From: Centroscyllium fabricii
Lineage: Eukaryota
Reading direction: 5' to 3'
NCBI GenBank assembly: GCA_051313645.2
Contig: JBNRSN020000024.1
Coordinates: 59,644,001-59,708,000, forward strand
Length of the DNA: 64,000 nt
Below the pieces are notes generated by a model that saw only the letters and a program-made list of their open reading frames with translations, was not told where the DNA came from and ran no database searches. The translations under genes and the position numbers were made by a program. Below are positions 16,000 through 48,665 of the stretch, one piece after another; the stretch's first letter is position 1, and each line of letters begins with the position of its first letter.

Positions 16000-16491
16000 T
16001 AGAGTCATAGAGTTATACAGCACGGAAAGAGGCCCTTCGGCCCATCGTGTCCGTGCCGGCCATCAAGCCCAGTCTATTCTAATCCCATTTTCCTGCGTTA
16101 GGTCCGCAGTCTTGTATGCTATGGCATTTCAAGTGCTCATCTAAATGCTTCTTGAATGTTAGAAGTCACACAACACCAGGTTATAGTCCAACAGTTTTAT
16201 TTGAAATCCTGGTGTTGTCTGACTTCTTGCATTTGTCCACCCCAGTCCAACACCGGCACCTCCACTTCTTGAATGTTGTGAGGGTTCCCGCCTCTACCAC
16301 CCTTTCAGGCAGTGAGTTCCAGATTCCAACCACCCTCTGGGTGAAAAAGTTCCTCCTCAAATCCCCTCTAAACCTCCCGCCCCTTACCTTGAAACTATGC
16401 CCCCTGGTTATTGACCCCTCTACTAAGGGGAAAAGTTCCTTTCTATCTACCCTATCTATGCCCCTCATAATTTTGTACACCTCAATCAGGT
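16000..16491 (-). mobile_element. CR1 LINE 3' fragment with PLE insertion at 16161-16265
   Basis: ORF2 C-terminus YKIMRGIDRVDRKELFP...RRNFFTQRVVGIWNSLP and tail (ACTCTATG)n. Confidence 0.88.
16161..16265. mobile_element. Penelope-like element family B short fold-back insertion
   Basis: Inverted pieces of ...GACTTCTTGCATTTGTCCACCCCAGTCCAACACCGGCACCTCCAC. TSD TTCTTGAATGTT at 16149-16160 and 16266-16277. Confidence 0.8.
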
Positions 16492-18232
16492 ACAGAAAGA
16501 AAGCAGAGTCGAAAAAAGCAAAATAGAGCCGTTAGAACATGTTAGCCAAAGGCTGGGAGTAAAAGCATGCGTGGGTACTATTTCACGCCGTTTAGAAGTA
16601 TCTAGCTCAGGGTCTGTGTGATTTGCATCAATCGCGCTAATTCTAACCATGGTGTTGACTGCTGGAGTAACTCTTGTAGTCATTTACTCAAATGTATTGA
16701 TCGAAGTATAATCGCAAGCAAATTCCAACAATAAAGTTGCCATATATATTTCAAACGTGTTCCTTAAACCGTGCAGTTAAACTACTTAATCCACTGATCC
16801 AGTGAATGTAAACTTTCCTAAGTTGTACTCATGTCAGGAGAAACCTGCTTGCCTTGTACAGGATGGATGTTAATGTGTTATTGGAGGTGAATGTTATTAT
16901 GTGCCCTGAAGGTTTGGATTGACAGTCTAGAGAGAGAGAAAAGGTCCTGAGAACATTCTGCGTCTTGTCGGTATTTTCTGCCTGGCCTGCCGAAGTTCAC
17001 AGCAGCGCAAAATGGATCAGCCTCGTGGTCCAGCAGATGCGGAGCTGTTGCTATTCTACTCAAGTCACGGGAAGATCTTTCACAGTTGTTTGCAATCCGG
17101 TTGCACTTGGCCGACCGCAGCCCCGTAGCTAGCGCTATATATTTCTCAGTTTATCACAAGTGTCACCCACATCTTCCTCCAGAGAGGTCAAGGGGAGTCT
17201 GGGGTGTCTACGGATCTTGACAAGCGAAGCAACCAGTCTGATCGCGACGGATAAAGTCACGTGTGCTGTGGGGTGGGGGGGGAGGAGAAGGAGTCGATGG
17301 TTAAAAAACATGACAAAAAACGATCTGCCTGTAAACCTGAACTTGACAAACACCCCTTCTACTTCATTTCAACCCTCCTGGCGTATTTAAAGTTGCAGGC
17401 TCCGGCCCTCGGGGTGGCCGATATTCAAATCCCAGTCTGGGTTTCTGTAATTATGCCCTCTAATCATTTATTGAAGCAACTTTACGTTCATTCCAATAAT
17501 CTATTTATTGATGGCCCAAGCCCAAACGAAACCAAGTAAAGCAAAAAGACTCTTGTTGATTTTAAATGTATGTGGTATTGTCAAGTTAATGGGGAAAACA
17601 TGTCTCTGGAAAGCAGATAGTAAGATGAACTTTTGAAATGGAGTACAATTGCCGATTCACCTCCTTCAAAGCCCTGAAGTGGTAACTGCTAATAATAGAA
17701 GGACAGAGATTGTTTTATTTTTATTGAATGTTGATCATAGTTATTGTTTTTAAACAGAGTGCAATCTTCCATTGTACTGTCCCTTTTATGGTAATTAGGT
17801 GCAAATATCGTCATAGAACATCAAATTAGGATTATAACTCACCCTAACCTTTCATTGCATGTGTTCTACACAGATTATTGATGAGGGGATAATTAACAGA
17901 TTGAAACTTTGGAAATCAAGATTTACGTACATGGCCCTCCTAGTCGCCATTTAATTACAACCTTCCTTACTGAGAGATGTATCACAACTTTTAAAATCGA
18001 CTCGTCTATGAAGAGAAATTCAATGTATGTCTAGCATTACAAGGGCAACGTGTTACTTAGAAAATAACATAACTTTAATAAACGTGATAAAATATATTAA
18101 CGATTTCCCGATACTCTTTCATCTGATAACTAGCAGTCGTATAATTGTTCCGTATACAACAGTTTTCAGTATGTTGTAGTCATTAGCTAGCTATACTAAC
18201 TGTAGGTTCACAAAGATACCTTCAAGCACATA

Positions 18233-18652
18233 ATGCAAGAAGTCACACAACACCAGGGCGGCACGGTGGCACAGTGGTTAGCACTGTTGCCTCACAGCTC
18301 TGGAGACCCGGGTTCAAATCCAGCCTCGGGTACTATCTGTGTGGAGTTTGCACATTCTCCCCGTGTCTGCGTGGGTTTCCTCCGGGTGCTCCGGTTTCCT
18401 CCCACAGTCCAAAGATGTGCGGGTTAGGTTGATTGGCCAGGATAAATTGACGCTTAGTGTTAGGGGGATTGAATGTGTGGGGTTACGGGGATAGGGTGGG
18501 ATATGTGTCGGTGCACAAGGCAGGGGCGGGGTGTTGGGTTTGGATGATCAGCCATGATCTCATTGAATGGCGGTGCAGGCTCGAAGGGCCGAATGGCCTA
18601 CTCCTGCTCCTATCTTCTATGTTTCTATGTTATAGTCCAACAGTTTTATTTT
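18233..18652 (+). mobile_element. V-SINE (18256-18629, tail B) nested in a PLE family B fragment
   Basis: The PLE sequence ATGCAAGAAGTCACACAACACCAGG|TTATAGTCCAACAGTTTTATTT is split by a full-length SINE. Confidence 0.82.
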
Positions 18653-21600
18653 AAACAATCATGGCTACTATCGACATTCAAGCACATAAAAGTGACCACA
18701 AATATTGTGTGTGTGTGTGTATAGATATAGATATATTGTATGCATAATTGGATGCACTATGCATTGTACGGGTATTAGTAATATGTTAGACACAAACATA
18801 GAATATAACAAAAATGTGTTAGAGAGCTGGAGAGTGATAGCATATATTTTGTGTGGACAAGGACGAAAAACTCGTGTCTGTTGTGCTGTGCAAAGGAAAA
18901 GGCTGAGTTTGTGACTTGTGTTTGGACCCGTTAACATTCATACACACTGACTGGGTGCTCACTTTCAATCGATATCTCCCTCCATTCCGCGTTGACGGCC
19001 ACTGGCTGTGACTCTGGCTGCTTGCTGTCTTGTGATGAAGCGAAGGAGATTCCGGACCTGTTAATACCGCCAGCCTCTGAGCCTTCTGCTGATAATCTTC
19101 CCCCTCCGAGCCATGGTCATTCCTCAGATGAAGTGATGTAAAAATCGCGCCCGAACTTTGATTCTCGGCCTATGGATTTTTGTGAACGGAAAGGGTTAAG
19201 ACAGAATTCACGCGGCCGTGGTTGTAAGTTTAAGTGTCAAAAGAATGATTATTTGTATCAACATGCAAACGCTTCATCTCTGGGCAGTGGATTGCTATGA
19301 TGTTTCCTATTTCTCATCTCAACTGGTTAATTTCAAATAAATAATGAAATGTGCCAGTACATGAACATCTTTTGCAGTAAATTAGGGCAGACTATTTTGT
19401 CGACATACATATTCTATTTTGCAAGCTGTTTGAATTCAAATCCACCCAACGTGTCCAATGCTCATTTTACACAATCTACTTTGCGAACTGAAAGTGGATA
19501 CTTAACATCGGAAAGTTCGTTTACAATGCCGGGTCAAACAGTGCACACTATTTGCAGTACTGTCATGCTCAGTTGATTACATTTCACTTCAGTAATTCGA
19601 AGGCAGGGTGAAAGGATGTTGCCTGTGATCGCCGCTCCTGTCGACACTGATTGAGTGTACTTTATGTAGAACTGGCAAACGGGGGGTGGATACATTCATT
19701 CCCCTCCCCCAAATAATATTTGCAATCGCCTTTTCCACGCGTTCGTAAATATCTTTGCGCCGAAGTGTTGCACAAATTTCAGCGTTACACCCAATCACGT
19801 GATTCGAACGTACTTTCCAATTGAAGAATTAAACCCCGCGTATCCGATGGAACTGTCTGCAAAAGGAGCAATTTCTCTCTCTCTGGCACTTTTACTTTCC
19901 ATCAGCTGTTTTTTGCCTGATCGGTAAACCTGCGGCGAGGCCTCGGTGCAACTGCCCTGCTTGTTAATTTCAAGTCAATTTCACTTATGCAGGCGGACCC
20001 AGGATGTTGAACTTCAATTGTGATTAGTTGCCCAACACTATTAAATGCACAAACCAGGCGATTTTAGGTTAACTCCTTGTACACAGCGCGCGAGTGTGTG
20101 CCTACAGGATGCTATGTGGCCTGTTTGAGGTGTCCCGGTGAATGACTTTTTGTCATCAGACTGCAAACTCTTTGCTGTCTGAGAGACGCCTGTGTTGCAA
20201 TAACATAACCAGATGCTTTGCAGCTGAATAAAATATTGGAGTAGAGATAGACATGATGGCCGCAGAGATGTTGCTCATCCCTTATCTCTATTCATTCCTG
20301 ACCAACACATGTCATCTGGGAGAGAGTCAATGGGAAAGGGTCCCTAGATAGAAGACTGCAGCTGTCACTGTGAAGTCTGGAGGGCCCCGTCTCCACCAGC
20401 CACGCTTCTCCCTTTTTGCATGAGAAGAACCCCATATGCAGAGAGGGCCTATTGATTATTTTCTTTGCGTCTTCACAACGGTTGTGCGAAGGACATAAAC
20501 AGGGAAGAGGTCTGTTTGAGGGAATTGTGTGCTGTATGCGGAGGGGCAGCGGACGTGGGATTGCAAAAACAAACTGTGTAACAAAGAGGGCAAAATAAAA
20601 AAGTTGGCGCTTACGAAACGTTGCACCTTTATTGCGAACAGGACGAGTTTCTTCTGGTAACTGTGGACATTTTCACCGGGATGGTCGCCTGCCTGCAGGG
20701 AGCAGGCCTATTTTGCTTTCCACTTTTTTCTGCCGTGAACCATTAATTTCTCAGAAACAATACAACTACTGCTATCTATTTAGTTTGCCGATTAAAAAAA
20801 AATATTCACATTAAGACGATTTGGAGTGTTAGATATATGTCACGGTAATAGTAACAAAACCATAATTGTACGAAAAATTGCTCTGTTCGCTATTTGCAGC
20901 GAAAATCATAAAGATGCTGTTGTTGAATTACTTGACGGTGTCGGGGCACACAGCGACAGAGCAATTGTTTCCCCCCAATGTCAAGGGGCTGATATTTTGT
21001 CCAAAGGGCTCAAATAAGACAGGTTCAACATGCGGAATCTAGAAAGTTGTGTGAGATCGGATGGTAACGCATCGGACGCCGCTGACAGACCACAACCCCG
21101 GCAGAAACTAGTAAATATAAAGAATACGCGCGAAGATTTGTTCGGCGCCTGTTAAAAAGCATGGCGATGTTAAAAGTTCAAACGCTGTCCAGCAATCGAG
21201 TTGATTCGCTAATTGAAGTGTTAAGACACTGCAGCAGACGAGTTCACAGTGTTTTATAATAATAGCCAAATAAATGCACACAAACAGATTGTGTTTCCAA
21301 GCACTCTGCATCCTGGATTAGCTCCAGTTCAGGCTGTCAGCACCCACTCCAATAAAACTGGCAGTGGTGAAAGTGCTGTTTTCGGTGCAGTGTTAACAGT
21401 CTTAGGATCCTCTCTGTAAAGACCTACAGCCTGCCTATATACCCGGACAGACATAAAAATGCATGGATATCCCCCCCCCCCCCCACCCCACTTTACACCT
21501 ACTCTAGTTGCCGCAACACAAGATTTATCTCAAGCGGACTATAGTGCTGCAGACATTTTTTGTTTTGTTTTGAAAAGTATGGGAAATGTCTGAACTGAAT

Positions 21601-22589
21601 GCAAATGTTCAACTTTCACGGCGCCCACGCTTTGGCAGCTGAGATCTGTCAACTGCTGGAGATGCTGACTGCAGGGTGAGCCTTTCTTGTCTTGTTTTCA
21701 TCCGCGTTGACGCGAGACGCAATACACACACACACACACAGAGCAAAAAAAATCAAAACTTTCATTGCAACAGTAAGTATGCAAATATATTTAGCCACTA
21801 TTGGGTGTCGAATTTAAAGATTAATCGGCAAAGACGTCCATTAAACATCGCAAGTAAGCATTTCCCCCTTGGGTAGGGCATTCATCAACAAGTGCAGAGG
21901 TGATAAAATGACTTCTTAGGTCTTTTCCTATCGTCTCTCACGTTTTCAGCGGATACCACTTCAAAGGTTAAAACGCATTTGCAGGCAGGGGGAAAAAACG
22001 CTCATGCATATGCAAGTTATTTTATTGACTCACCCCACCGTTGAGATTGCATCAAACGTCATATACTCCTCCTTTTCAATTTTCACCTGATGATGGGCAT
22101 GTACACAGCACCTCCCCACACCCCCAAATGATATGTTTGTTATTTCACGTCTGATTAAGGCATCACCTTGGTATCTTTAGCAAATTATTACGGCTAACAG
22201 ACGGAGCAATCATGGTGCAACAATTTGGACTTCTTGCAGAATGACCGAAACAGGAGCAACAACAAAAACTTGTGGAAAGAAGCAAGCTACTTGTCTGACA
22301 CACACACACACACACAGACACTCACACACAAACCTGGTCAACAGCAACAACAACAAAACTCCGAAAAGTGCAATAAAAGAGGGTGAAGGCCTGAACATGT
22401 TCCTGGTCTTTGTTTTGAGCCAATCGCTTTTTCTCCCCCCGCCCCCCACCACCACTCACCAAAATGCGCTGAACAAAAGTGCAAAATTGCAAAATGACTA
22501 TTGCAACTGGAACAAAAAAAAATGCAAAAAAAAATAGGAAATGGTAGAAGAAATATTGAGAATTGCAACTGTACCTAACCCTCAGAAAA

Positions 22590-22880
22590 GCGGCCGCGGG
22601 CCTCCCGTTTTATTCTCTGGGCGAGATGTTGCGAGTCGTTCGCAGGCAGGGGGAAGAGCAAAAAAAAAGGCAACACGCTTTTACAAAAAAAAAAGCGGTC
22701 ATAAATTAGCGGTTGCCATGGCGGCGGGGCGGCTGATTGGACGGGGGCGCCGGTGACGCGGCGGGGCGCGTGACGGCGATGTGAATAAGGTGCGCGCGCG
22801 AGCTCCAGGAAACATGCAGTGGAGTGAGCGCGTGCGGCGGGCCAAGCAGCAGCGGCCGGTGATTGGCATGTTTATCCACA
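22590..22880 (+). promoter_or_regulatory. LHX1: LHX1 CpG-island promoter candidate
   Basis: CpG-rich. Contains an X-box-like GTTGCCATGGCGGC (22712-22725), GC boxes, and inverted CCAAT boxes CTGATTGG (22733-22740) and TGATTGG (22860-22866), about 600 bp upstream of the ATG. Confidence 0.7.
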
Positions 22881-23489
22881 CAACTACCATAGCTGTACAG
22901 TAAACACGACTGGGGATATTGCTCTTCCAGATCAGGAAAGTTGAACCATGCAATCAAAATCAATGCTTGCCACAGGCCTGTCACCCATATTTCATTTCTG
23001 GAATATTTAATATATATATATATATATGCGTTATTATTCTTATTTTGCTAATGCAAGCAAACTAAAGTATTTATTATAAAAAAGCCAACCAAAATACTTT
23101 ATGAGACACGGGACAAAGTTAAACGTTGGTATCTCTTTTGCATCATGTTGGAGTAAACAATTTGCTCCAATACTCCAGAGTGACAGCCCTGTTGCTTGTT
23201 GGTTAGTATAGCCTCTCTCTTTTTTTAAATTATTTTATTTTAGAGTTATTCCTTTAAGAGGGCGATTGTTGCTGTAGGAGTACACCTGCATCGGGTTTCC
23301 TTTTCACTCATATATCAGCTACCTCAAAAAAGAAAGAACGCTGGCCACTTCATCCGCTGGAACCGTCGCCCTTTCCACAAGGAGCCATTCTAAGGATCAG
23401 CCCTGCCTGGACGATCGAGGACCTCATTATTACCAGCCAAATATCTAACCGTCAGCTATCTCATTAATCTGGGGAACAATCCAAAGACT

Positions 23490-23659
23490 ATGGTGCACTG
23501 TGCGGGGTGCGAGAGGCCTATTCTCGATAGGTTTCTATTAAACGTCTTGGACCGAGCCTGGCATGTGAAATGTGTACAATGCTGCGAATGTAAATGCAAT
23601 TTAACAGAAAAGTGTTTTTCACGAGAAGGAAAGCTCTACTGCAAAAACGACTTCTTTCG
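23490..23659 (+). CDS. LHX1: LIM homeobox protein 1, coding exon 1 (LIM1 domain)
   Basis: [57 protein letters not shown]; donor GTAAGT at 23660; 170 nt. Confidence 0.96.
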
Positions 23660-26120: not shown

Positions 26121-26846
26121 GTAAGGGCAAATCCTCATAGTAAATATATATATATGTATATGTGTGTGTGTGTGTGCTTAATGGGAATCTGGGCGACAGT
26201 GTGGCCCAGTAATGTTACAGTAGCAATCGGCTGCAGCATTACTATAATCTCGCACGTGTTTTTCTCAATTAAATACTTTCACTACAACACACAGTGTGTA
26301 TTGCCATCGTAAAATGAAGAGGAATGTAAAATAATCGGGATTGGGGCTGCACGGGAATGACAAACGCGGGTGTAACAGGCTCAGGCTTTGAGCCTCCCGT
26401 TTCGCATCCACCCCATTTTAACAGTTATTTGCTGTTAATTTAATTAAATTCCATTTGCTTACTTGATCTATTACAGCGAGTAGCAGAATGTACGATTTTC
26501 GTGTAGCTTTTGTGTGACACATCTCCTGTTTGTCCATTGTACCATTTTATTCCGATTTAGATGTATGTTAACTTTTTTTTCCCGTTTCACATTTTTTTTT
26601 TACATTTTCATGTTAATATGAGAATGATTTGTTTTGAGTAGGAATATTTAGAGCATCCATAATTGTATCATTTTGGTGTGTTTGGCTTATCTCTTATTCT
26701 AAAACGTAAAAGTACTGTAATTCGGCTTTCCAGAGGGGCTATATTATCAATTACTAATACAGTCTCGGTAATTATCATCGTTTCAATGGGTTATTTATGT
26801 GATGTGAACTCATACATCATCCCATTACATTTTGTGTGTTGTACAG

Positions 26847-27124
26847 TAACGGCATGTAGTGATCAAAGTTTGTCACCGGATTCTCAAGATCATTTACAAG
26901 ATGACACAAAAGATTCAGAAAGCGCCAATGTTTCAGATAAAGAGACCGCCAATAACGAGAACGAGGAACAGAACCTGGGAGCCAAGCGCCGGGGTCCCCG
27001 CACAACCATCAAAGCGAAACAGCTGGAAACTCTCAAAGCGGCGTTTGCAGCCACTCCGAAACCCACCAGGCACATCCGAGAACAGCTCGCTCAGGAAACC
27101 GGGCTCAACATGAGGGTCATACAG
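26847..27124 (+). CDS. LHX1: LHX1 exon 3 (linker plus N-terminal homeodomain)
   Basis: [15 protein letters not shown]...[47 protein letters not shown]; donor GTAAGC. Confidence 0.96.
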
Positions 27125-27172
27125 GTAAGCGAGACATTCAGAACCGGGGGCTCCACTGTGGCTAAACATGGG

Positions 27173-27318
27173 GTGGAGGTGCCGGTGTTGGACTGGGGTG
27201 GACAAATGCAAGAAGGCACACAACAAACACCAGGTTACAGTCCAACAACAAGCTTGTGATTTCTAATAAAGCTGTTGGACTATAACCTGGTGTTGTGTGA
27301 CTTCTTGCATTTGTGACA
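27173..27318. mobile_element. PLE family B fold-back insertion in LHX1 intron 3
   Basis: Terminus GTGGAGGTGCCGG; the inversion occurs at ACAAGCTTGTG. TSD AAACATGGG at 27164-27172 and 27319-27327. Confidence 0.8.
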
Positions 27319-27387
27319 AAACATGGGAGACACGGAGGCAGGGAATTAAACCTGCTCTGAGTGTGGGGGGGGGGGGGGGGGGGGGTT

Positions 27388-29759: not shown

Positions 29760-30630
29760 GTAAGTCCCAATTCATTTCTGTTAAACACTCCCCAGGATGT
29801 GCTTAAAAACTGATTACTTATTTAATGAGAAGGACGCTGCAAATTCAGTTTTACAGTCATGTATTGACGGACAATTGAAATACTGTATGAAGTTAGCCAT
29901 TTATTGACTTATTATTGACTTATTCAATCACTGATTACAGGAAGAGAGTCTCCGTGCTATTTTAAGGCTAAAGTATCTCTTTTCCCTCAACGATCTGCTT
30001 GTCAATGTCAGATCAGTTTCATATGCAGAATCAACTGAGCAGAGTTTCCCGCTGACAAGAACCGACTGAGGAACAGGGAACCCCAATAAGCAGCGTCCAA
30101 AATAAATGGCCCGCCTAAAATTACCATAGGAATATACAAAAGGAACTGAAATAATACAACATCTGTGTATATACGCCGGTATAAAAAGACCCAGGGAATG
30201 GCATACCCAGGTGCATTGCCATAGGGTTGTGTTTACCCCTGACATCTACACTGGGTTCTTAAAACGATACTTAGATGTAGATTAAAAGTCTTCTATTAAA
30301 ACAAACTATCGTTAACGTTGCTTACAATTGTGGGTTTTATTTTCCGATTTGCAGTTTAACAGAATACAATTAAACCAGGTTTCAAGCCTAAATAGGGAGT
30401 GCCATAAAGTTAAGGATTGTTGGGTAATATTTTAAAACTTTTATTTCCCCAAAGAAAAGTATATGGGTCGGCTTTACTTGATTATATTGCTGTGCATTAT
30501 GTATTCAACGTTTACCCGTTTTGACTTCGTATTACGAACATTTCACTATATTTGTGTAACGTGGACACTGTGATGTGAAACACGTGCTTCCGTTATATTT
30601 ACTTATAATTATGAATAATAAAATGCTTAC

Positions 30631-31043
30631 TTGGGTTGTTTTCCTTGGAGCAGAGAAGGCTGAGGGGGGACCTGATTGAGGTGTACAACATTATGAGATT
30701 ATTATAGGGTAGATAGAAAGGAACTTTTCCCCTTAGTAGAGGGGTCAATAACCAGGGGGCATAGTTTCAAGGTAAGGGGCGGGAGGTTTAGAGGGGATTT
30801 GAGGAAGAACTTTTTCACCCAGAGGGTGGTTGGAATCTGGAACTCGCTGCCTGAAAGGGTGGTAGAGGCAGGAACCCTCACAACATTCAAGAAGCATTTG
30901 GATGAGCACTTGAAATGTCATAGCATACAAGGCTACGGACCAAGTGCTGGAAAATGGGATTAGAGTAGACTGGGCTTGATGGCTGGCTCGGGGTCGATGG
31001 ACCGAAGGGCCTCTTTCTGTGCTGTATAACTCTATGACTCTAC
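30631..31043 (+). mobile_element. CR1 LINE 3' fragment with an empty PLE target site (30881-30893)
   Basis: LFSLEQRRLRGDLIEVY...FFTQRVVGIWNSLPERVVEAGTLTTFKKHLDEHL with no interruption at TTFKK; tail AACTCTATGACTCTA. Confidence 0.88.
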
Positions 31044-32460: not shown

Positions 32461-33821
32461 TAACTCGTCAGATACAGAGTACTGCAACGGCGTTTAAATT
32501 GAAATATATTCTAGCAGGGAATTTCAGAAAAGCCTTCAAAAGAATTGACTGCACATTTAACACTTTTAAAATATATATATAGATCCCATTAAGATTTTGG
32601 GGGTGTAAATGATGTTGGTGCGTGAACCATTGGTTTTCATGCTCGGATTTTTAAATAATGCGTATTGGGAGTAATTTGCATGAATACCTGTGGATCATTT
32701 AGGTAGCAGGCTGCTTTCAGAACACTTCACTGAATTTGGTAACTAGGTAACTAAGTGCGAGTGCACGACTTAAACCTCGGCTCCGAATAATCAACTATTT
32801 TTACAAGATCTTTCAGCCCACGGTTGTGGGATGATGGCAGGCTGTTATTTGGCGTGTGCTCGACAATGACTAGTGGAGTGGTGGTTTTGTGAGAGCGGTT
32901 GCGTTTGTGTAAAATGAGTGAGCATTATTCAAAAAGTGGGACCCTGCTGGGCCAGACCTTGTGTGTGATAGGGATTAATAACACCGAATAGTTTCCCAAG
33001 CGTTTGTTTGCAATCACATCTGCTTCATTTTTCACTTACAGAGATGAAATCTTGAGCAAAAAAAAAACCCCAAGACATCAGTCTGATTTGCAAATGGGAC
33101 ATAAATTAAGCACAAAAAAAAAAACATTTGATTGCTGTTTGCCTTGCCCGTTGCGCGTCACACTGTGAATTCACAGAGTAATTCTGAGCAATGGAGTTTG
33201 GGGCTGCTCAAATGTAAGGCTCATTAGCCAAAAGAGAAAATAATTCACTGTGTCACAAAAATGTTCTGATTTTATATTCTCTGAAAGAATTTCATACATG
33301 TTTGTTTTAGCCACTAAAAAAAATTAAAACGCCTAGAATGGTGTAAATGGTTTATTTTGTCTTAAACCTGGCACCAGAGACATGCCCTATGATTGGGTCT
33401 CATTTGATCAGAAAGCAATATTACCACTTTGTCTCACCGCCCTAGGTACAACAACCCCGTTTTATTTCACATTGCTACAGAGCAGCATGTCGGCCTCCAT
33501 CCATGGTTCCCAGAGATATGGGAAGGTTTCCTTTCTGATCACAGATTTCAGAATGACAGCAGATCAACTCGAGTACCTTAAGAGTCACAGAGTTATACAG
33601 CACGGAAAGAGGCCCTTTGGCCCATCGTGTCCACGCCGGCCATCAAGCCCTGTCTATTCTAATCGCACTTTTCTGCAGTTGGTCCATAGCCTTGTATGCT
33701 ATGGTGTTTCAAGTGCTCATCTAAATGTTTCTTGAATGTTGATGTGCCGGTGTTGGACTGGGGTGGGCAAATTTAAGAAGTCACACAACACCAGGTTATA
33801 GTCCAACAGTTTTATTAGAAA

Positions 33822-33858
33822 TCACAAGCTTTCAGAGCGCTGCTCCTTCCTCAGGTGA
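33822..33858 (-). ncRNA. Minimal hammerhead ribozyme motif (PLE family B)
   Basis: Minus strand: TCAC-CTGAGGA-A-GGAGC AGC GCTCT-GAAAGCTT-GTGA. Stem I TCAC/GTGA, palindromic stem III AGCT. Confidence 0.75.
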
Positions 33859-33958
33859 AGTGAAGAGATGCATATAGGCACAGCATATATAGTCAGAAAA
33901 CAATGCCAGATGATTATTCTCTGACTATATATGCTGTGCCTATGTGCATCTCTTCACT

Positions 33959-33995
33959 CCACCTGATGAAGGAGCAGCGCTCCGAAAGCTTATGA
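33959..33995 (+). ncRNA. Minimal hammerhead ribozyme motif (PLE family B), sense in LHX1 intron 4
   Basis: CCAC-CTGATGA-A-GGAGC AGC GCTCC-GAAAGCTT-ATGA. Core intact, stem I mismatched. Confidence 0.65.
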
Positions 33996-34525
33996 TTTCT
34001 AATAAAACTGTTGGACCATAACCTGGTGTTGTGTGACTTCTTATATTCTTGAATGTTGTGAGGGTTCCTGCCTCTACCACCCTTTCAGGCAGTGAGTTCC
34101 AGATTCCAATCACCCTCTGGGTGAAAAAGTTCCTCCTCAAATCCCCTCTAAACCTCCTGCCCCTTTATAAAGACCAACAATAAATGCAATAATCTGGGAA
34201 CCAATGCGCCTGGCTTTATGTTGAAGGTTGAATCTAGAGACCACATTGTAACTGTGTGTGTGTGTGTCTTGGGAGGGGAATAAGCAGGTTGATGCCTTTA
34301 AAGGCCAATTCATGTTTAGGAGGTGCCTACCCCATTATCAGTTCTGCAACGTGCAAGGGAGATAAACGAAAGTCACCGATTTCAATTCTGAAGTTTTCAG
34401 AGTGCAAGGCCAGGTTAGGAATTAAGTGCAAACGTTGTTACTGTGAGTTTTGAATTCGTTGTGTTCCTATTATGATTTCACCTGGCTCGCGTTTTGGCTT
34501 TGAACAATGCGTTGCTGAAGCACCA

Positions 34526-34656: not shown

Positions 34657-34808
34657 GTGGAGGTGCCGGTGTTGGACTGGGGTGGACAAATGCAATAAGT
34701 CACACAACACCAGGTTATAGTCCAACAGTTTTATTTGAAATCACAAGCTTGTGATTTCAAATAAAACTGTTGGACTATAACCTGGTGTTGTGTGACTTCT
34801 TGCATCTA
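34657..34808. mobile_element. PLE family B fold-back insertion forming a 116-bp palindrome
   Basis: Palindrome 34690-34805 centred on AAGCTT (34745-34750) with one mismatch; flanking duplication TGCACCAA at 34645-34652 and 34809-34816. Confidence 0.82.
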
Positions 34809-34883
34809 TGCACCAAATGTGTAGGGCTGCATAAGGATAACGTATATTTATATTTATTTGCTCCCTTTTTTTTTCATTCCCAG

Positions 34884-35272
34884 ATTATCAGACTGAATAT
34901 TACGGTCCTGGAAGCAATTATGATTTCTTTCCTCAAGGGCCCCCCTCGTCTCAGGCGCAGACTCCAGTGGATCTGGGTTTTGTGCCCTCCTCCGGGCCTG
35001 GGGCGACCCCACTCGGCGGGCTGGAGCACCCGCTGCCCGGCCACCACCCCAGCAACCTGCCGGGCCCAGGCGACAGCCAGAGGTTCACCGACATGATCTC
35101 TCACGGGGACTCTCCGAGCCCAGAGCCGGGTCTGACAGGACCGTCCATGCACTCGATGGCGGCGGATGTGTTCGGGCCGGGTCCCAGCCCGTCGTTCTCC
35201 CTCACCAACGGGGGATACACCAGCCATTTGTCACATCCGCCTCCGGAAATGAACGAGGCGGCCGTTTGGTAA
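34884..35272 (+). CDS. LHX1: LHX1 exon 5 (C-terminal domain, to stop)
   Basis: Acceptor TTCCCAG; [31 protein letters not shown]...[10 protein letters not shown]. The spliced CDS is 1227 nt, 408 aa. Confidence 0.96.
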
Positions 35273-39164: not shown

Positions 39165-40590
39165 ATAGAGTCATGGAGCCATAGTCACAGAGTTATACAG
39201 CACAGAAAGAGGCCCTTCGGCCCATCGCGTCCGTGCCGGCCATCAATTACATTTTCCTGCATTTGGTCCGTAGCCTTGTATGCTATGGCGTTTCAATTCA
39301 ATTCAATTCAAGTTTTATTGTCATTGCAGAGTACCAGTACAATACAACGAGACGAAGACTCGACTCTCCCAAGAGTAGTGCAAATAAAATAAATAAATTA
39401 CATGCAAATTGCATACAGTAAAGTACATTATCAGGCGTGCAGGTACCAGAGTTTATTTTTAGAGTTCAGGAGGCTGACAGCCCTGGGGAAGAAGCTGTTC
39501 TGAAATCTAGTCGTGCGGGTGCAAATTGCTCTGTAGCGTCTCCCGGAGGGCAGGGGGGCGAACAGACTGTGGCTGGGGTGTGTGGGGTCTTTAATAATGT
39601 TCAGAGACCTCCGTAAGCAGCGTTTGAGGTAGATGCTTTCCATTGACGGTAGCTGGGTACCGGTGATTCGTTGGGCAGTTTTGACTACCCGCTGCAGGGT
39701 TTTCCGGTCCGAGATAGTGCAATTACCATACCAGACTCATCTAAATGCTTCTTGAATGTTGTGAGGGTTCCTGCCTCTACCACCCTTTCAGGCAGTGAGT
39801 TCCAGATTCCAACCACCCTCTGGGTGAAAAGGTTCTTCCTCTAATCCCCTCTAAACCTCCCGCCCCTTACCTTGAAACTATGCCCCCTGGTTATTGACCC
39901 CTCTACTAAGAGAAAAAGTTCCTTTCTATCTACCCCCCTCATAATTTTGTACACCTCAATCAGGTCCCCCCTCAGCCTTCTCTTCTCCAAGGAAAAAACC
40001 CCAGCCTGTCCAGTCTTTCTTCATAGCTGAAGCACGCCAGCAGGTAACATCCTGGCGAATCACCTCTGCACCCTCTCCAAAGCAATCACATTCTTCCTAT
40101 AGTGTAGCGACCAGAACTGCACACAGTACTCCAGCTGTGGCCTTACCAGTGTTCTGTACAGCTCCATCATAACCTCCCTGCTCTTATATTCTATGCCTCG
40201 GCTAATGAGGGCAAGTATCCCATATGCCTTTTAACCACCTTATCCACCTGTCCTGCTGCCTTCAGGGATCTATGTACATGCACACCAAGGTCCCTCTGAT
40301 CCTCTGTCTTTCCTAGGGTCTTACCATTGCCTTGTATTCCCTTGCCTTGTTAGTCCTTCCAAAATGCATCACCTCACACTTTTCAGGGTTAAATTCCATT
40401 TAAGAACAGGAGCAGACCATACGGCCCCTCGTGCCTGCTCCCCCATTCAGTAGGATCATGGCTGAACCGAACTTAGATTCAAGTCCACTTCCCTGCCCGT
40501 TCCCTGTAACCCCTTATTCCCTTATTTGCCACTGCTCCGCCCATCTGACCAACCCATCTATATCGTCTTGCAGACTGAGGCTTCCCTTGG
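39165..40590 (-). mobile_element. CR1 LINE 3' part, interrupted by Rex/Babar (39293-39733) and another CR1 tail (40402-40520); empty PLE site 39749-39760
   Basis: CR1 ORF2 motifs on the minus strand (LVRPQLEYCVQFWS, LQDDIDGLVRWAEQWQ). Confidence 0.85.
39293..39733 (-). mobile_element. Rex1/Babar LINE 3' fragment
   Basis: IIKDPTHPSHSLFAPLPSGRRYRAICTRTTRFQNSFFPRAVSLLN; tail (TTGAA)n abutting a host TTCAA. Confidence 0.82.
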
Positions 40591-40854
40591 GCTCCAGCCA
40601 AGCAGAACAGCATTTGCATGCGCCTGGCTGGAATTGTGTAACAATCTTAACCATGAGAGAGAGACATACAGGCGTGGGCACAACTCTCTCCCAACAGTGA
40701 AAACATTTTGCATGGAATGGAATGCACAGTACAGGAACAGGCCATTCGGCCCAGTTGTCTATGCCAGTGTTTATAAGCCACACCAGCATCCTCAATCGCT
40801 ACTTCATTTAAATATTTACAACAGCATCTTGCATTTATATAGCGCCTATAATGT

Positions 40855-41179
40855 ACAGATGGGTGAGACTAGAACTAGGGGGTATAATCTTAGAATAAGG
40901 GGCTGCCCTTTCAAAACTGAGATGAGGAGAAACTTCTTCACTCGGAGGGTAGTAAATCTATGTAATTTGCTGCCTCGGAGAGCTGTGGAAGCTGCAACAT
41001 TAAATAAATTTAAAACTGAGATAGACAGTTTCCTAACTGATCGGGGAATAAGGGGTTACGGGGAGCGGACAGGGAAGTGGACGTGAGTCTAAGTTCGGAT
41101 CAGCCATGATCCTATTGAATGGCGGAGCAGGCCCGAGGGGCCGTATGGCCTACTCCTGCTCCTACAACTTATGTTCTTA
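40855..41179 (+). mobile_element. CR1 LINE (second family) 3' fragment nested in an L2-like end
   Basis: ETRTRGYNLRIRGCPFKTEMRRNFFTRRVVNL; its tail is homologous to V-SINE tail B. Confidence 0.82.
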
Positions 41180-41360
41180 AAAATCGTTCCAAGGCGCTTC
41201 ACTGCAACGTTATCAAACAAAATTTGACTCAAAGCCACATAAGGAGTTAATAGGACAGGTGACCAAAAACCTGAAGCAAATACGGAGAGTACCCTCTTTC
41301 AAAATGTTTAAATTGGATTTAGAATGTGCTCCGCCCTCTTGAGTGCTTTGTAACATAGTA

Positions 41361-42008
41361 CAGGTTGTGCACCATTAATCCGCCCCATGCCGGGAAACTG
41401 AAAAAAACGGGAGAACGAAGTTGGACACTGCGCATGCGCACCATGCAAAATGGCCGCGCGCATGCGCACAACATTGGGATTGGCTGACGCACGCATGCGC
41501 AGATCAACCAATAATGGCCGCCGCGAAGTTTTTTGAGGGGCTCAGGCTTGTGTGGCGTTCCGTTTGCCTTTTAGGGCTGTCGGGCAGCAGTGAAAGGCCG
41601 GTCTTGCAGGGGGGGAAGGAGGGTTGTGCGGGCGCGGGTCGGGCCCAGTAGGTCCGCCTTCCCTCTCCATCGCCTTTCGGGTTGCTGCTGCCGCCGAGCC
41701 AGACTCAGGCTGACAGCTGTTGCCTAGTGACTGTCCGCCTCAGTCACGGGGCTCAGCTGTCGAGAAAATAACCGGCGGCCGTATTGAATTATCTGCGCAT
41801 GCGCTAGCCGTCCGGCGACGCATGCGCAGATCATTCAAAACACCCGGCAGCCGTTTTGAATGATCTGCGCATGCGCTCGGCGCATGCGCAGATCATTCGC
41901 CGAAGCCGCGATGGCGGCTGCCATCTTGCGCAGTGCAGTCGGGGCAATTTGTGCCGGCAGACTGAAGCTGCCGGCTTTTCGGGACACGGATTTTCGGTGC
42001 ACAACCTG
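41361..42008. mobile_element. pogo/Tigger-like MITE
   Basis: TIRs CAGGTTGTGCACC / GGTGCACAACCTG with TA TSD; inverted homologue at 56318-56870. Confidence 0.8.
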
Positions 42009-42599
42009 TAGCAGTTTCATGTAGAGGGGTCCATCTAGCTCACCTATTCTCAGTGTTCCCTCGGTGCAGTTCCAATAACTCGTGCATCTAGGTTTGACCT
42101 CCACCCCCCTGATTGACATTTTGTGGTGCTAAACCAAAGCGGTGTGACACCAGCACTTCCAGGCAATCTCACTTTGCTTTGCTGTGGAGCTGGGTTGGAC
42201 CTTGGATTCACAGTGCTAGTTTAGCATTGGTGCGAAGGTAAAATTATAGCACAGCTCGCCCCTCTCCAGTACCACTCAGATACGCATTGTTTGTTTGAAG
42301 TGTCACCCTTGGCTCAATACGAGCACAACAATGACGGGCAGGGAAAGACCCACTGGTCCATCCAGATTGTCTCTCAAAACTGTAATTCCTTGTGCGTGAC
42401 AATGCATACACTCCCCACCCGACTCCAAAGCCATGTAATCTCCTAGGATCAGTGAAAAAACCCAGGCCAATTAGGGGGGGGGGGCGGGAAATCTGGAAAA
42501 TTCTTCAGACGATCAAAAACTAGTCCAGGCTTTGCATAACTTGATTGTGACCCACCCCCCACCCCCCGGTCCTCCCTAGCCTATTTAGTTAAAATAAGC

Positions 42600-44000
42600 T
42601 ATCTACACAAACTCAATCCATTCCCTTCATCATCTTCTTAATCTTGACCAAATTGCCTGTTTCTTTAAAGTGTGGAATCCCTGCTCTTTGAGCCTATCTT
42701 GGTAACTAAGATGCTTTAAACTGGTTATTAATCTTGTGATCCTCCTGTGCACCCTTTCGAAAGCCTCAACTTCACTCACCATTTGAGGAAGCCAAAACTG
42801 GACACAGTATTGTAACTGAGGCCAAATCAAAGTCTTGTACAAGGACAACATTGGATGCTTTGTATTGTACTCAATTGTCCTATAAATACATCCTATTTGT
42901 TCTAGCTCTCACTTCACGGCATTGGGCCTGAACCTTACAGATCTATGCATTAGAGTTTGTATGTTCAGCATTAGAAGTAGGAGCAGGAGTAGGCCATACG
43001 GCCCCTCGGGCCTGCTCCGCCATTCAATAGGATCACGGCAGATCCGAACTTAGACTCACGTCCACTTCCCTGCCCTCCTTATTCCCTTATCAGCTAGGAA
43101 ATTGTCTACAGGTACACAATCCGTTATCCGAAACCCTTGGGACCGGACGGGTCTCGGATTTCTTCGGTTTTCGCAATGGTGCCCAGTGCGCATGCGCAGA
43201 TCACATGCGCATTGCCGTGTTGGCTGCCCAGTGCGCAGGCTGAAACGGTAGGAGATTGTGGGCTCGGGGAGAAATTGGACCCGTGGGTCCATTTTTTTTA
43301 CATTGGTAAGCTCTACTTTCTTGTTAATTTTACTTTTATCACTGGATTAAATTGAATTGGCTTTCAAAACGGGTCAGTTTTGGCGCAACTCGGGTTTTCA
43401 GAGCTTTTCGGTTTTTGGATGTGTGGTTAAGGGATTGTGTACCTGTATCTCCGTTTTAAATTTATTTACACAGCTCTCTAAGGCAGGAAATTCCATAGAT
43501 TTACTACCCTCTGAGTGAAGAAGTTTCTTCTCATCTCAGTTTTGAAAGAGCAGCCCCTTATTCTAAGATTATGCCCCCTCGTTCCAGTCTCACCCATCAG
43601 TGGAAACATCCTCACCGCATCCACCCGATCAAGCCCCCTCAATCTTGCGTGTTTCGATAAGATCGCCTCTCATTCTTCTGAATTCCAGTGAGTAGAGGCC
43701 CAACCTACTCAACCTTTCCTCATAAGTCAACCCCCTCATTTCCGGAATCAACCGACTGAACCTTCTCTGAACTGCCTTGAGAGCAAGTATATCCTTTCTT
43801 AAATATGGAAACCAAAACTGTATGCAGTATTCCAGGTGTGGCCTCACCAGTAACCTGTATAACTGCAGCAAGACCGCCCTGCTTTTATACTCCACCCCCC
43901 TTGCAATAAAAGCCAAGATTCCATTGGAGTTTGTATGTTCAGCATTCGACCTACCCACATTCATAACACTGCACTTTTCTAAGTTAATTATCATTTGTCA
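42600..44000 (-). mobile_element. Old CR1 fragment carrying a nested CR1 (42973-43921), which itself carries a MITE (43109-43445)
   Basis: CR1 peptides LYKTLIWPQLQYCVQFW and LYRLLVRPHLEYCIQFW; 25-bp duplication at 42948-42972 / 43922-43946. Confidence 0.78.
43109..43445. mobile_element. Tc1/mariner-pogo MITE
   Basis: TIRs CAGGTACACAATCC / GGATTGTGTACCTG with TA TSD. Confidence 0.78.
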
Positions 44001-44029
44001 GTCACAAGCTCAAACTCCCAGAACATCAG

Positions 44030-45165
44030 TGATGGTGCTCTTTTCCCTGAGTTCAAGCCCCCCTACACCAGGGACCTGAGTACATAATCTAAGTTTGACA
44101 CCTCAATGTCATACAGGTTGAGCTCCATTAATCCGTTACCTGAAAAATCGGCAACTTCGAACGTCCGGCAATAGTTTCCCCGACTGCCCCGCGCATACGC
44201 AAAATGGCAGCCGCGCTTAATGCTTCAGCGAATGATCTGCGCATGCGCCGCTGAAGGGCGAGCGCATGCGCAGATCATTCACAATGGTCTCCGAGCCAAT
44301 AGCAGGCTGGGCCGGGACTCCCCGAACGCGGGCTGGGCCGTGACTCCCCGAACGCGGGCTGGGCCGTGACTCCCCGAACGCGGGCTGGGCCGTGACTCCC
44401 CGAACGCGGGCTGGGCCGTGACTCCCCGAACGCGGGCTGGGCCGTGACTCCCCAAACGCGGGCTCGGCCGGGACTCCCCAAACGATGCTGGGCCGGGACT
44501 CCCCGATCGCGGGCCGGGACTCCCCAAACGATAAGCGCATGTGCAGACCACTCAAAATTCTAAGATTATGCCCCCTCGTTCTAGTCTCACCCATCAGTGG
44601 AAACATCCTCACCGCATCCACCCGATCAAGCCCCCTCACAATCTTATGTGTTTCCATAAGATCGCCTCTCATTCTTCTGAATTCCAATGAGTAGAGGCCC
44701 ATCCACCCGATGCCCCCACACAATCGCGGTGGCCATTTTGAATGGTCTGCGCATGCGCTCGCCGAAGCTTCAATCGTTCGGGATTTTCACTTTCCCGGCA
44801 CGGGCCTGCTCCCGCCCATGCCGGATTAATGGTGCTCAAGCTGTAATGAGGGAGTGCTGCATTGTCGGAGGTGCACGTATTTTGAATCGGACGTTAAGTC
44901 AAGACCGTGTCTTCGTTAACATAAATGATCCCATTGCATTTTTCAAAGAAAAGCTTGGGAATCTTCCTGGTGTCCAACATTTACCCTTCATCGAATATAA
45001 CCAAAACAGATTAACTGGTCAATAATCTCATTGCTACTTGCGGGACTGTGCTGTGCACAAATTAGCTGCTGCGTTTGGCTGTATAACAAGTGACGACACT
45101 TTGGGGGAAAAATTGTCAGGGAAGCACTTTGGGACACCTGAAGATGTGAGAGGTGTGATATAATT
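44030..45165 (+). mobile_element. Diverged Deu-SINE split by a Tigger-like MITE (44114-44843)
   Basis: The SINE resumes TAATGAGGGAGTGCTGCATTGTCGGAGG after the MITE. MITE TIRs are CAGGTTGAGCTCCATTAATCCG / CGGATTAATGGTGCTCAAGCTG with TA TSD. Confidence 0.72.
44304..44530. repeat. 26-bp GC-rich minisatellite (GGGCTGGGCCGTGACTCCCCGAACGC) inside a MITE
   Basis: About 8 tandem units, degenerate at the 3' end. Confidence 0.88.
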
Positions 45166-45418
45166 GTTAGTTGTTTCCTTTAATTGAAATGATTGGATAA
45201 TTTTTCTTTCGTGCCACCTTCCAGCACACTCAGTATCAGTTGTCTCGAAGGTGAACTAATCTTATCTGAATTTCTGTATAAAAAAAAAAACACGTTGGAA
45301 CTGTATCTTTGTGCCAGTACTAGACATGTCAGTGGATTGTTTGCAGTTAAACCCTAACAGAGGTGCAAAATTATAGTTTTATTTTAGTGTTCATTCAAGA
45401 AGATAGTTTCCTAATACA

Positions 45419-46464
45419 CAGGTTGAGCACCGTTAATCCGGCACCCTCGGGACCAGGCCGGTGCCGGATTACTGAAAATTCCGAACCACTGAAGGTTCGG
45501 GGGGGAGCGCATTGTAGAACACTCCCCGGGGCCCGGAGCGCGCAGGTAGAACACTCCCCGGGGCCCGGAGCGCGCAGATAGAACACTCCCCGGGGCCCGG
45601 AGCACGCGGTAGAACACTCCCCGGGGCCCGGAGCGCGCAGGTAGAACACTCCCCGGGGCCCGGAGCACGCGGTAGAACACTCCCCGGGGCCCGGAGCACG
45701 TGGTAGAACACTCCCCGGGGCCCGGAGCGCGCAGGTAGGACACTCCCCGAGGTCCGGAGAACGCGGTAGAACACTCCCCGGGTCCCGGAGCGCGCGGGTA
45801 GAACACTCCCCGGGTCCCGGAGCGCACGGATAGAACACTCCCCGGGGCCAGGAACGCGTGGGTAGAACACTCCCCGGGGCCCGGAGCGCATGGGTAGAAC
45901 ACTCCTCGAGGTCCGGAGAACGCGGTAGAACACTTCCCGGAGCGCGTGGGTAGAACACTCCCCGAGGTCCGGAGAACGCGGTAGAACACTCCCCGAGGTC
46001 CGGAGAACACGGTAGAACACTCCCCGGGGCCTGGAGCGCGCGGGTAGCACACTCCCCGGGGCCCGGAGCACGCGGTAGAACACTCCCCGGGGCCCGGAGC
46101 ACGCGGGTAGAACACTCCCCGGGGCCCGGAGCACGCGGGTAGAACACTCCCCGGGGCCCGGAGCACGCGGGTAGAACACTCCCCGGGGCCCGGAGCATGC
46201 GGTAGAACACTCCCCGGGGCCCAGAGCGCGCGGTAGAACACTCCCCGGGGCCCGGAGCGCGCGGTAGAACACTCCCCACGAGGGAGCCCGGGGATAGAAC
46301 ACTGTCCAGCAGCAACCCAAACGCCCGACGCTTGCCCACCCTTCGCGGGAACCGGCGGCGTTGCCGAGCGGCTGCTCCACAAACTGAAGGCCGCAGGTTC
46401 CAATTCGTGCCGAACCACTGAAGTTGCCGGACCATCGGGTGCCGGATTAACGGTGCTCAACCTG
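45419..46464. mobile_element. Tigger-like MITE containing a ~31-bp minisatellite (45513-46300)
   Basis: TIRs CAGGTTGAGCACCGTTAATCCGGCACC / GGTGCCGGATTAACGGTGCTCAACCTG; repeat unit GGTAGAACACTCCCCGGGGCCCGGAGCACGC. Confidence 0.88.
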
Positions 46465-46569
46465 TATTTATAGTTGAGGCGATATATACTGTTAATTTTT
46501 ATTTTATTTCCATGTTTGTATAAAGTTCAGTTTTGGGGTTTTTCCCTATATTCCACTCAGGGAAAGAAC

Positions 46570-47108
46570 TTGAATTTATATATTTCCTTCGCGTCCTCCG
46601 GATGCTCCAAGTGCTTTGTAGCCAATGAGTTACTTTTGGTGTAGTCACTATTGTAATGTGGGGAAACACGGCAGCAAATTTATGCGGCGCAAGGTCCCAC
46701 ACGCAGCAGTGAGAATAAGAATAATGACCAATTTAACTGTTCTAGCTGTGTTGGCCGAGGGATAAATAATTAGCCAGGCCACAGAGAACCTCCCGGCGTT
46801 TCTTCCACTCGTGTCATGCAAAGTTCTCTTGAAGCTGCGCGGCTGCACAGCTGTCTTGAGGTCCCCTGCGCAGACGGTGAGCCGGCTTCACAATGCAAAA
46901 AAAGCGCGCATGCGCGGAAGTTTGAATGGGCCGCGCAGCCCGTTAAAGGGGCCGAGCGGCCCAAAAAAGAATTAGGGGAACATTGGTGCCATGGCATTTT
47001 TTTTACGTCCACCTCGGAGGGCAGACGGAAACGCGGTTTAATGTCCCATCTGAAAGACGGCACCTCCAGCAGTGCCACTGTCCGTCAATATTGCGCAGGC
47101 GTGTCAGT
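46570..47108 (-). mobile_element. Deu-SINE interrupted by a hAT-like MITE (46819-46985)
   Basis: Deu core on the minus strand. The insert ends TTAGGGGAACATTG and has an 8-bp TSD GTGTCATG / GTGCCATG. Confidence 0.7.
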
Positions 47109-47884
47109 CAAAGCTATTTGATTCGATTTGTCAGAGCTCTTGCTTTTTATTGTTCGGAGATTCACCGGCAGTACCACGACGCATCAGAGTATTTCCAAAT
47201 TAGATCTGTGAAGGAGTTAATGTGGGAAGCCTATTTCTGCTTGGCATTAAGGCCATGTGTTTGTAGTTGTTTATCTTATAATATTTATAGTACCAGTGAG
47301 TCACAGCTAAAAATGAAACTAGCTTCAATGCATAATGAAAATATAGGGCAGTTGGGGCTGTGCCAGGTCATAATTGGCAACTGTAATTTGCACTAATGTG
47401 ATTTTCATGATGGTGGACCAAATCCTCTGGAGAGATTTGGAAGGCACTTTCAATAAAGAGATGGGAGGCACTAAAGTGCCCGCTGTGCTAACAATAATGC
47501 TGACAAAATGTAATAAATGAAATTTTTATTCTTCCATAAACAGAATATTTGATTTGTAAGCCTTTTCAATATTAAATGAATCCTAATTGCAACTCATTTT
47601 CACCAGTGATCCTTCTCAGTTTCTCACACTTTTCATATTTAACAGCTTGGCATTAAGTGTTGTCGATTTGTTTCTGCTCCATGATCTGTCCCCTGTTGGT
47701 GAGACGCGCGCTTCTCCTGGTGGTAACATGGGACAGTCAGGGTGTGTTTTGTACTCTGATTTTTTTTGCCCAGTGCTTCATCTGGTGGCTGGAGGAGCAG
47801 TACAAGATGGCCATCTGAAGAAGGTAGTTCACATGATGAGCAGCTCCTTGCTCTTGTGTTCACAACTTTTCCGGTTCAACTTTG

Positions 47885-48665
47885 TCATCGAGTCATACAG
47901 CACAGAAAGAGGCCCTTCGGCCCATCGCGTCCGCACCGGCCATCAAGCCCAGTCTATTCTTAATCCCATTTTCCTGCATTTGGTCCGTAGCCTTGTATGC
48001 TATGGCATTTCAAGTGCTCATCTAAATGCTTCTTGAATGTTGTAAGAAGTCACACAACACCAGGTTATAGTCCAACAGTTTTATTTGAAATCACAAGCTT
48101 TCAGAGCTCTGCTCCTTCGTCAGGTGTTTGTCCACCCCAGTCCAACACCATCACCTCCACTTCTTGAATGTTGTGAGGGTTCCTACCTCGACCACCCTTT
48201 CAGGCAGTGAGTTCCAGATTCCAACCACCCTCTGGGTGAAAAAGTTCTTCCTCAAAACCCCTCTAATCCTCCCGTCCCTTACCTTGAAACTATGCCCCCT
48301 TATTATTGACCCTTCTACTAAGGGAAAAAGTTCCTTTCTATCTACCCTATCTATGCCCCTCATAATTTTGTACACCTCAATCAGGTCCCCCCTCAGCCTT
48401 CTCTGCTCCAAGGAAAACAACCCCAGCCTGTCCAGTCTCTCTTCATAGCTGAAGCGCTCCAGCCCAGGTAACATTCTGGTGAATCTCCTCTGCACCCTCT
48501 CCAAAGCAATCACATCCTTCCTATAGCGTGGCGACCAGAACTGCACACAGTACTCCAGCTGTGGCCTTACCAGCGTTTTGTACAGCTCCATCATAACCTC
48601 CCTGCTCTTGTATTCTATGCCTCAGCTAATGAAGGCAAGTATCCCACATGCTTTTTTAACCACCT
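47885..48665 (-). mobile_element. CR1 LINE 3' fragment with PLE insertion at 48044-48160
   Basis: MELYKTLVRPQLEYCVQFWSP...FFTQRVVGIWNSLPERVVEVGTLTTFKK. Confidence 0.9.
48044..48160. mobile_element. PLE family B insertion with hammerhead (48091-48126, minus strand)
   Basis: TSD TTCTTGAATGTTGT at 48030-48043 and 48161-48174; minus strand CAC-CTGACGA-A-GGAGC AGA GCTCT-GAAAGCTT-GTGA. Confidence 0.82.

Follow-up and report, generated by a model that had tools for sequence, protein, structure and literature searches.

The locus

We analyzed a 64-kb stretch of the Centroscyllium fabricii genome (assembly GCA_051313645.2, contig JBNRSN020000024.1, positions 59,644,001 to 59,708,000; termed the window herein), in which copies of a long interspersed element (LINE) that we take to be CR1 carry pieces of a Penelope-like element (PLE) at one and the same position. 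The 12-bp target, TTCTTGAATGTT, covers the TTFKK codons, some 26 codons short of the stop of CR1 open reading frame 2 (ORF2). It is present exactly at 16149, 16266, 33729, 34046, 48030, 48161, and 39749 on the forward strand and at 30882 on the reverse strand, and nine matches with at most one mismatch were found where 0.76 would be expected. PLE termini were matched at 16242-16265 (−), at 27173, 33738, and 34657 (+), and at 48137-48160 (−). These positions confirm the core of an earlier, sequence-only reading of the window, namely, that three CR1 copies each hold a PLE insert between identical 12-bp duplications of these codons, with the insert near 33.7 kb in the opposite orientation to the other two.

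The first filled copy is a CR1-type LINE 3′ fragment at 16004-16491 (−; BLAST against the 48-kb copy, 90.7%). Its target duplication, at 16149-16160 and 16266-16277 (+; from sequence matches), flanks a 105-bp insert (16161-16265, +) that consists of an inverted, tail-less end and a tailed end of a pseudo-long terminal repeat (pLTR). The second 3′ fragment (33584-34165, −; duplication at 33729-33740 and 34046-34057) contains a 305-bp insert (33741-34045, −) that forms a long palindrome, with predicted minimal hammerhead ribozyme cores in both arms, at 33821-33859 (−) and 33958-33996 (+). The third (47884-48690, −; duplication at 48030-48041 and 48161-48172) retains the ORF2 C-terminal frame and contains a 119-bp insert (48042-48160, +) with one predicted core in its inverted arm (48090-48128, −). 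We refer to inserts with the tailed end on the right as orientation A (the first and third) and to those with the tailed end on the left as orientation B (the second). The sequence-only reading had given the lengths as 105, 304, and 117 bp; the first stands, and the others become 305 and 119 bp with a 12-bp duplication because one or two bases of microhomology had been counted as duplication. It had also called the inserts hammerhead bearing, which applies to two of the three and not to the 105-bp insert. Both of the empty CR1 sites that it listed are present, at 30882-30893 in the copy at 30630-31038 (+; sequence match and BLAST) and at 39749-39760 in the copy at 39184-40240 (−). The latter is not simply empty: a foreign element of about 440 bp with a (CAATT)n-type tail, at about 39297-39735, splits this copy about 13 bp from the site.

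The insert is a PLE with a GIY-YIG-type endonuclease region

The inserted repeat is the pLTR of a PLE. A natural pLTR-ORF-pLTR copy was found at locus L286, with a single ORF carrying a frameshift and stops. The autonomous partner with reverse transcriptase (RT) and a GIY-YIG-type endonuclease region exists. The DKG motif of the RT reads KPADKGG in loci L059 and L286, and one of the inserts at the CR1 site (L299; protein P0002) matches RT family PF00078 (E = 3e-9) and has GIY-YIG-type, CCHH, and CX4CXXC motifs in its endonuclease region. Read copy by copy, the first of these runs VVYLIRC..C..WYIGET and is followed by R, H, H, E, and N. Pfam and PDB searches returned no match for the endonuclease region; in the Atlas it adjoins clusters with PF01541 on 31% of their members (score, 0.96). 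The CX4CXXC linker precedes the endonuclease in most copies that span this region, and a CX2-5CXXC linker is a mark of the Neptune and Nematis clades (PMC8557442, partial text). Judged by these motifs, the family is an endonuclease-bearing (EN+) PLE with a linker of the Neptune/Nematis type.

Most inserts have an inverted pLTR with a tail of 34 to 42 nucleotides (nt) on one end; at L376, both arms are tailed, as if both ends had been primed at the tail start. A pattern for the minimal type I hammerhead core matched 359 times in the DNA examined, where overlapping loci may repeat a copy, with stem II fully paired in 317 of the 359 and stem I with three or four of its four pairs in 339. A search with Rfam gave only hairpin look-alikes below their cutoffs, and the predicted fold of the monomer was no better than those of shuffles. 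Minimal hammerheads have been described for PLEs (PMC6155905, partial text). As for the host repeat, we saw the ORF2 C-terminal frame and the 3′ tail; the piece in the window had no Pfam match, and a related piece matched PF00078.

The CR1 site is a hotspot across the genome

Exact-pattern counts over the whole 7.21-Gb assembly gave 78,259 tailed PLE ends, 26,686 empty CR1 sites (21,719 when counted by two outside anchors), and 437 inverted-end junctions at the CR1 site. Using a pattern that lets the tail junction fall anywhere within a 30-bp interval, we counted 340 tail junctions in the first orientation, with 99 of the 100 among the matches listed lying at the site, and 255 in the opposite orientation, with 100 of 100 among the matches listed at the same boundary. 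The neighboring 30-bp intervals on either side held 11 and 8 tail junctions, and minor junctions lay at about −41, −38, −28, +36, and +50. When the 99 listed junctions were read by eye, 82 fell in the CR1 family of the window, and 10 and 7 fell at the homologous position of two other CR1 families. The enrichment at the site was 940- to 1,480-fold over the genome mean, per site and orientation, an estimate for which anchor frequencies came from 30 loci and calibration samples were small; an upstream control interval was at 0.95- to 1.2-fold. The single-site preference proposed from three inserts thus holds genome-wide, and insertions spread uniformly along CR1, an outcome that would have spoken against it, were not seen, the flanking intervals being close to the genome mean. 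The CR1 site is a single-position hotspot of nested insertions, about 1,000-fold in strength and built up by independent events.

A fixed 12-bp duplication and a palindromic target

We next consider 131 unselected inserts, all taken from a single contig within its first 110 Mb, for which both insert ends had to be intact. A 12-bp duplication is compatible with 121 of them. The longest stretch shared by the two sides is exactly 12 bp in 38 and shorter in only 7, so that the distribution breaks off sharply below 12; once microhomology (1 to 4 nt at the junctions) is removed, what remains breaks off sharply above 12. The duplication finder works with a minimum score of 9 and made no call at 9 of 99 loci. 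For a weight matrix, 5 inserts (2 at the focal site and 3 nested in the element itself) and the 7 with a shared stretch below 12 bp were dropped. The remaining 119 aligned targets are mirror symmetric, with CTGCC, an A/T-rich 12-bp core with T at position 5 and A at position 8, and GGCAG (about 4.3 bits). This symmetry is visible without being forced: among 60 sites with a unique register, position 0 is a pyrimidine in 54 and position 13 is a purine in 54. Up to a distance of 20 bp on either side, no distal motif exceeded about 0.15 bit.

Among inserts at the hot site, none of 17 of the AATTG type and 5 of 13 of the ATTTG type have an inverted end that begins one base late. The late start is confined to the subfamily in which the last base of the primer finds no pairing partner in the next template base, as expected if the nick itself primes there. 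PLE ends also occur facing each other 10 to 30 bp apart, some with a common short A/T-rich spacer (e.g., L418 and L423); these pairs are two insertions at or beside one target.

Our preferred explanation, to which we give a probability of about 0.72, is that the PLE family, which is spread genome-wide, came to occupy this 12-bp CR1 site hundreds of times and in either orientation, likely by separate insertions, because the target cut by its GIY-YIG endonuclease is likely a degenerate palindrome and the multicopy CR1 site is probably among the best substrates. A two-fold symmetric, presumably dimeric complex would nick both strands 12 bp apart and leave two 3′ overhangs. One overhang would prime reverse transcription at the tailed end of the RNA and the other at a second start 34 to 42 nt upstream, and joining of the two cDNAs would yield the inverted, variably deleted inserts. 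The preference would be nonadditive, combining sequence and DNA shape, so that 1 to 2% of all insertions would go to a few sites in CR1 families with some 60,000 to 100,000 copies each. CR1 would then be a bystander that multiplies a good site.

Several points weigh against this explanation. In the 119-site matrix the hot site scores 4.7 bits, which predicts 13- to 26-fold enrichment depending on the background and leaves 40-fold or more unexplained. The neighbor at −38 scores higher, at 5.0 bits, yet has about one hit, and by the matrix the hot site should take 22% of local insertions, whereas its observed share exceeds 90%. A first matrix, from 48 sites, had ranked the hot site first (5.4 bits); in the 119-site matrix it is second, behind this cold site, and we reject an additive weight matrix as the full explanation. 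A class rule (C..G flanks, A/T-rich core, T5/A8) gives 42-fold on 6 sites and leaves 25-fold or more; it accounts for the cold neighbor by its G/C-rich core, a class with 1.6-fold enrichment. The two other CR1 families hit at the homologous position differ at 3 to 4 of the 12 target bases, and the determinant could therefore be tied to CR1. The unselected sample has the narrow scope given above, no intact PLE ORF was found among the copies examined, and the other recurrent CR1 positions described below rest on one to three events each and on rough copy numbers. An endonuclease preference for the CR1 site is likely, as read from target sequences. For the residual of 25- to 40-fold or more, we favor a nonadditive readout of sequence and shape over a chromatin state imposed by CR1 and over selection for the site.

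Chromatin context is the strongest competitor, if an unlikely one. Here one turn of DNA would be exposed by a nucleosome or a bound factor that the CR1 3′ end positions, and the enzyme would have little taste of its own. The excess over the sequence models fits this idea, as do the hits at the same position in three CR1 families that have common flanks and different target bases. A 12-nt 3′ stagger is also 2 nt longer than one helical turn, as with cuts on one face of the DNA. Against it, the neighboring intervals are at the genome mean, the minor hits form no clear satellites at 10-bp spacing, and the C..G, T5/A8, and A/T-core features of targets in general are present at the hot site too.

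A dispersed element rather than a safe-harbor specialist

The CR1 site holds about 1% of the tailed PLE ends and 2 of 100 unselected complete inserts, and 98 to 99% of insertions lie elsewhere. Filled sites make up 1.6% for one junction type in one orientation, from which we estimate about 3 to 5% overall. Using a library of seven CR1 ORF2 pieces, which misses 3′ untranslated regions and distant families, we placed 18 of the 131 unselected insertion points in CR1 ORF2-like DNA, compared with 26 of 262 points 300 bp away; such DNA makes up 11% of the local region and 4.5% of the farther flanks. With 113 of 131 points outside it, near background, general targeting of CR1 is unsupported.

Other CR1 positions recur among the unselected inserts as well, one three times in 119 and one twice within a base, and a further one was seen in L360, L144, and two of the matches listed. 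The recurrent positions in ORF2 comprise L037/L325/L365, L360/L144, L124/L371, and L367/L374. Their copy numbers are roughly alike (counts of 2 to 8), and they are probably hotspots of similar strength. Site-specific, safe-harbor elements have most of their copies at one target, which this family does not. The suggestion that CR1 serves as a safe harbor was therefore overstated, and we regard the site as a hotspot of a dispersed element.

Two readings grant CR1 a larger role. One, which we consider speculative and improbable, is a transposase-like integration in which a dimeric GIY-YIG enzyme makes a concerted 12-bp staggered cut, both ends prime cDNA, and the zinc finger of the linker reads a feature at the CR1 ORF2 end that is conserved across families, the lineage being part-way from dispersed to site specific. 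The other, which we find still harder to credit, is that the element already specializes on CR1 as a safe harbor, its enzyme having been selected to read such a feature. The roughly 1,000-fold enrichment, the use of the homologous site in three CR1 families (82, 10, and 7 of 100 among the matches listed), and the presence of the CX4CXXC linker, for which a targeting role is a hypothesis of Craig et al. (PMC8557442, partial text), would agree with specialization. It is contradicted by the 1 to 2% share of insertions, by the near-background distribution of the unselected points, and by the other CR1 positions that recur as often; several PLE subfamilies use the CR1 site, and all of them also insert elsewhere.

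Dispersal is visible in the window itself. That the preference is not absolute had been noted from PLE inserts outside CR1 at 27173-27310 (−) and 34657-34805 (−), both supported by a terminus match and BLAST, and a further one lies at 18233-18676 (+), where a clean 12-bp duplication can be read at 18221-18232 and 18677-18688. This last insert is broken up by other repeats. Segments at 26900-27127 and 34876-35270 are presumably exons of a gene resembling the LIM-homeobox gene LHX1, and between them lie three PLE inserts and two CR1 copies.

The sequence-only reading held that three filled copies out of five are hard to attribute to chance, and at the genome mean rate the probability is indeed 3e-4 to 1e-3. 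The ratio is an outlier, however: five further sites in the flanking 200 kb are all empty, so that 3 of 10 are filled in 264 kb. PLEs are 3.5 times as dense here as on average (10 exact tails, where 2.9 would be expected). Given this local density, 3 filled sites in 10 are unremarkable (P = 0.08 to 0.25), and no special local feature is needed for the cluster.

Resemblance to the element's own sequence

The target had been said to resemble a segment of the element's own pLTR, CTTCTTGCAT, and the two are identical at 9 of 12 positions. This exceeds all 119 unselected targets (maximum, 8), whose mean identity to the segment is 4.74 compared with 4.30 ± 0.12 for shuffles, and 1 of 15 orientation B inserts (L225) is joined in that register. 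That the element's RNA or protein finds its target through this likeness is nevertheless very improbable. The own site, present in more than 78,000 copies, had 100 strand matches over a 30-bp interval with no in-register peak, compared with 437 at 26,686 CR1 sites; the other recurrent insertion sites are unlike CTTCTTGCAT; and the shuffle does not preserve the positional A/T preference. The likeness stands, and as a cause it is unsupported.

Independent origin of the insertions

Both junctions were available for 51 rows (50 loci, one being a duplicated pair). Their lengths take 49 values, and orientation, junctions, and subfamily markers occur in 45 combinations. Both copies of the duplication carry a private variant of the host CR1 copy in 4 of 15 orientation B inserts, showing that the CR1 copy had diverged before the insertion. 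A tree of CR1 flanks, limited to 87 rows with both flanks (30 A filled, 12 B filled, and 45 empty), required 25 changes for the A-filled copies, where shuffled labels needed 24.9 on average, and 12 for the B-filled copies; neither count is lower than with shuffles. The filled copies, scattered on this tree, formed one clade in no bootstrap tree, at low resolution (6 of 84 branches well supported; bootstrap not converged), and so did not show the single clade that would have told against separate events. One well-supported, short-branched CR1 subclade contains seven filled and two empty copies (L006, L015, L026, L028, L109, L212, L221, L073, and L260) and may be a more frequent target. The occurrence of both orientations at one 12-bp target, the duplicated private variants, and the use of three CR1 families bear out the proposal that the insertions at the CR1 site are independent.

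True composites do occur. An MITE-like (miniature inverted-repeat transposable element-like) element of about 830 bp with G-run/C-run inverted ends (L121, L131, and L136, at about 1170-2000) carries a scrap of a PLE end; it accounts, with one shared junction, for 9 of 100 tail-less PLE ends among the matches listed and is a high-copy composite. Such cases, the duplicated pair L015 and L026, the subclade with seven filled copies, and the ease with which palindromic inserts delete, so that length differences alone prove little, are what can be said for one or a few CR1-PLE composites having spread by retrotransposition or gene conversion, with later rearrangement, an origin that the orientations, private variants, and tree largely refute and that we reject as hardly credible.

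Implications

How PLEs choose their targets and build inverted, tailed inserts is the question that a symmetric cut addresses. Tens of thousands of copies indicate that the cut is symmetric and fixed at 12 bp and that both of its ends prime, and two-end priming agrees with in vitro work on another PLE clade (PMC11167929, partial text). The CR1 site would serve as a natural substrate, about 1,000-fold better than the average site, and a matched cold neighbor lies 38 bp away, which makes both cleavage geometry and specificity testable; the fixed symmetric cut and this pair of sites are the chief value of the finding. Shared PLE-in-CR1 insertions at the hot site are unsafe markers of common descent.

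Comparison with known systems

In L1 twin priming, a second nick primes a second cDNA and leaves the 5′ part inverted. In our case, by comparison, the second start would be a fixed pLTR position, and the duplication length is fixed. R2, in the 28S ribosomal DNA, is a site-specific retroelement. The spike-moss element PLE-X also targets 28S, without an endonuclease (PMC8557442, partial text). Both occupy a precise site in a multicopy sequence, as here, but they are targeted to it, whereas 98 to 99% of the insertions described here are elsewhere.

In human repeats, single-position nested hotspots are common, some are used in both orientations (MER1 in MIR3), and they do not always coincide with a known motif (Levy, Schwartz, and Ast, PMC2836564, partial text). 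Those cases involve Alu, L1, hAT, and LTR elements, with no PLE in the part of that paper available. Our literature search, which covered titles and the beginnings of abstracts, returned neither a PLE hotspot in CR1 nor a fixed palindromic 12-bp PLE target, either of which may be in print in subscription papers or Repbase notes; the accessible portions of PMC12910113 and bioRxiv 10.64898/2026.07.22.740005 likewise have nothing on them.

Among PLEs, rotifer elements have inverted pLTRs with tails and duplications of 8 to 10 bp (PMC3846280, partial text). The Neptune and Nematis elements share with the present family the pLTR-ORF-pLTR layout, the DKG motif, the RT, the CX2-5CXXC linker, the C-terminal GIY-YIG domain with CCHH, the hammerhead, and the inverted pLTR with an optional tail (PMC8557442, partial text). 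In the same text, PLE duplications are called variable in length, with a bias to microsatellites or AT-rich DNA; here, in contrast, the duplication is fixed at 12 bp, the preference is palindromic, and the hotspot is a nonrepetitive LINE site. For the anole Poseidon protein PAc, both strands were cleaved and extended in vitro, two RT starts define the tail, a dimer is predicted, and AT-rich DNA is preferred (PMC11167929, partial text). As far as that portion goes, Poseidon is without the linker finger and is described with an ATT motif and not with a fixed stagger or a palindromic target, but its two-strand cleavage and extension, two RT starts, dimer, and AT-rich preference match the model proposed here.

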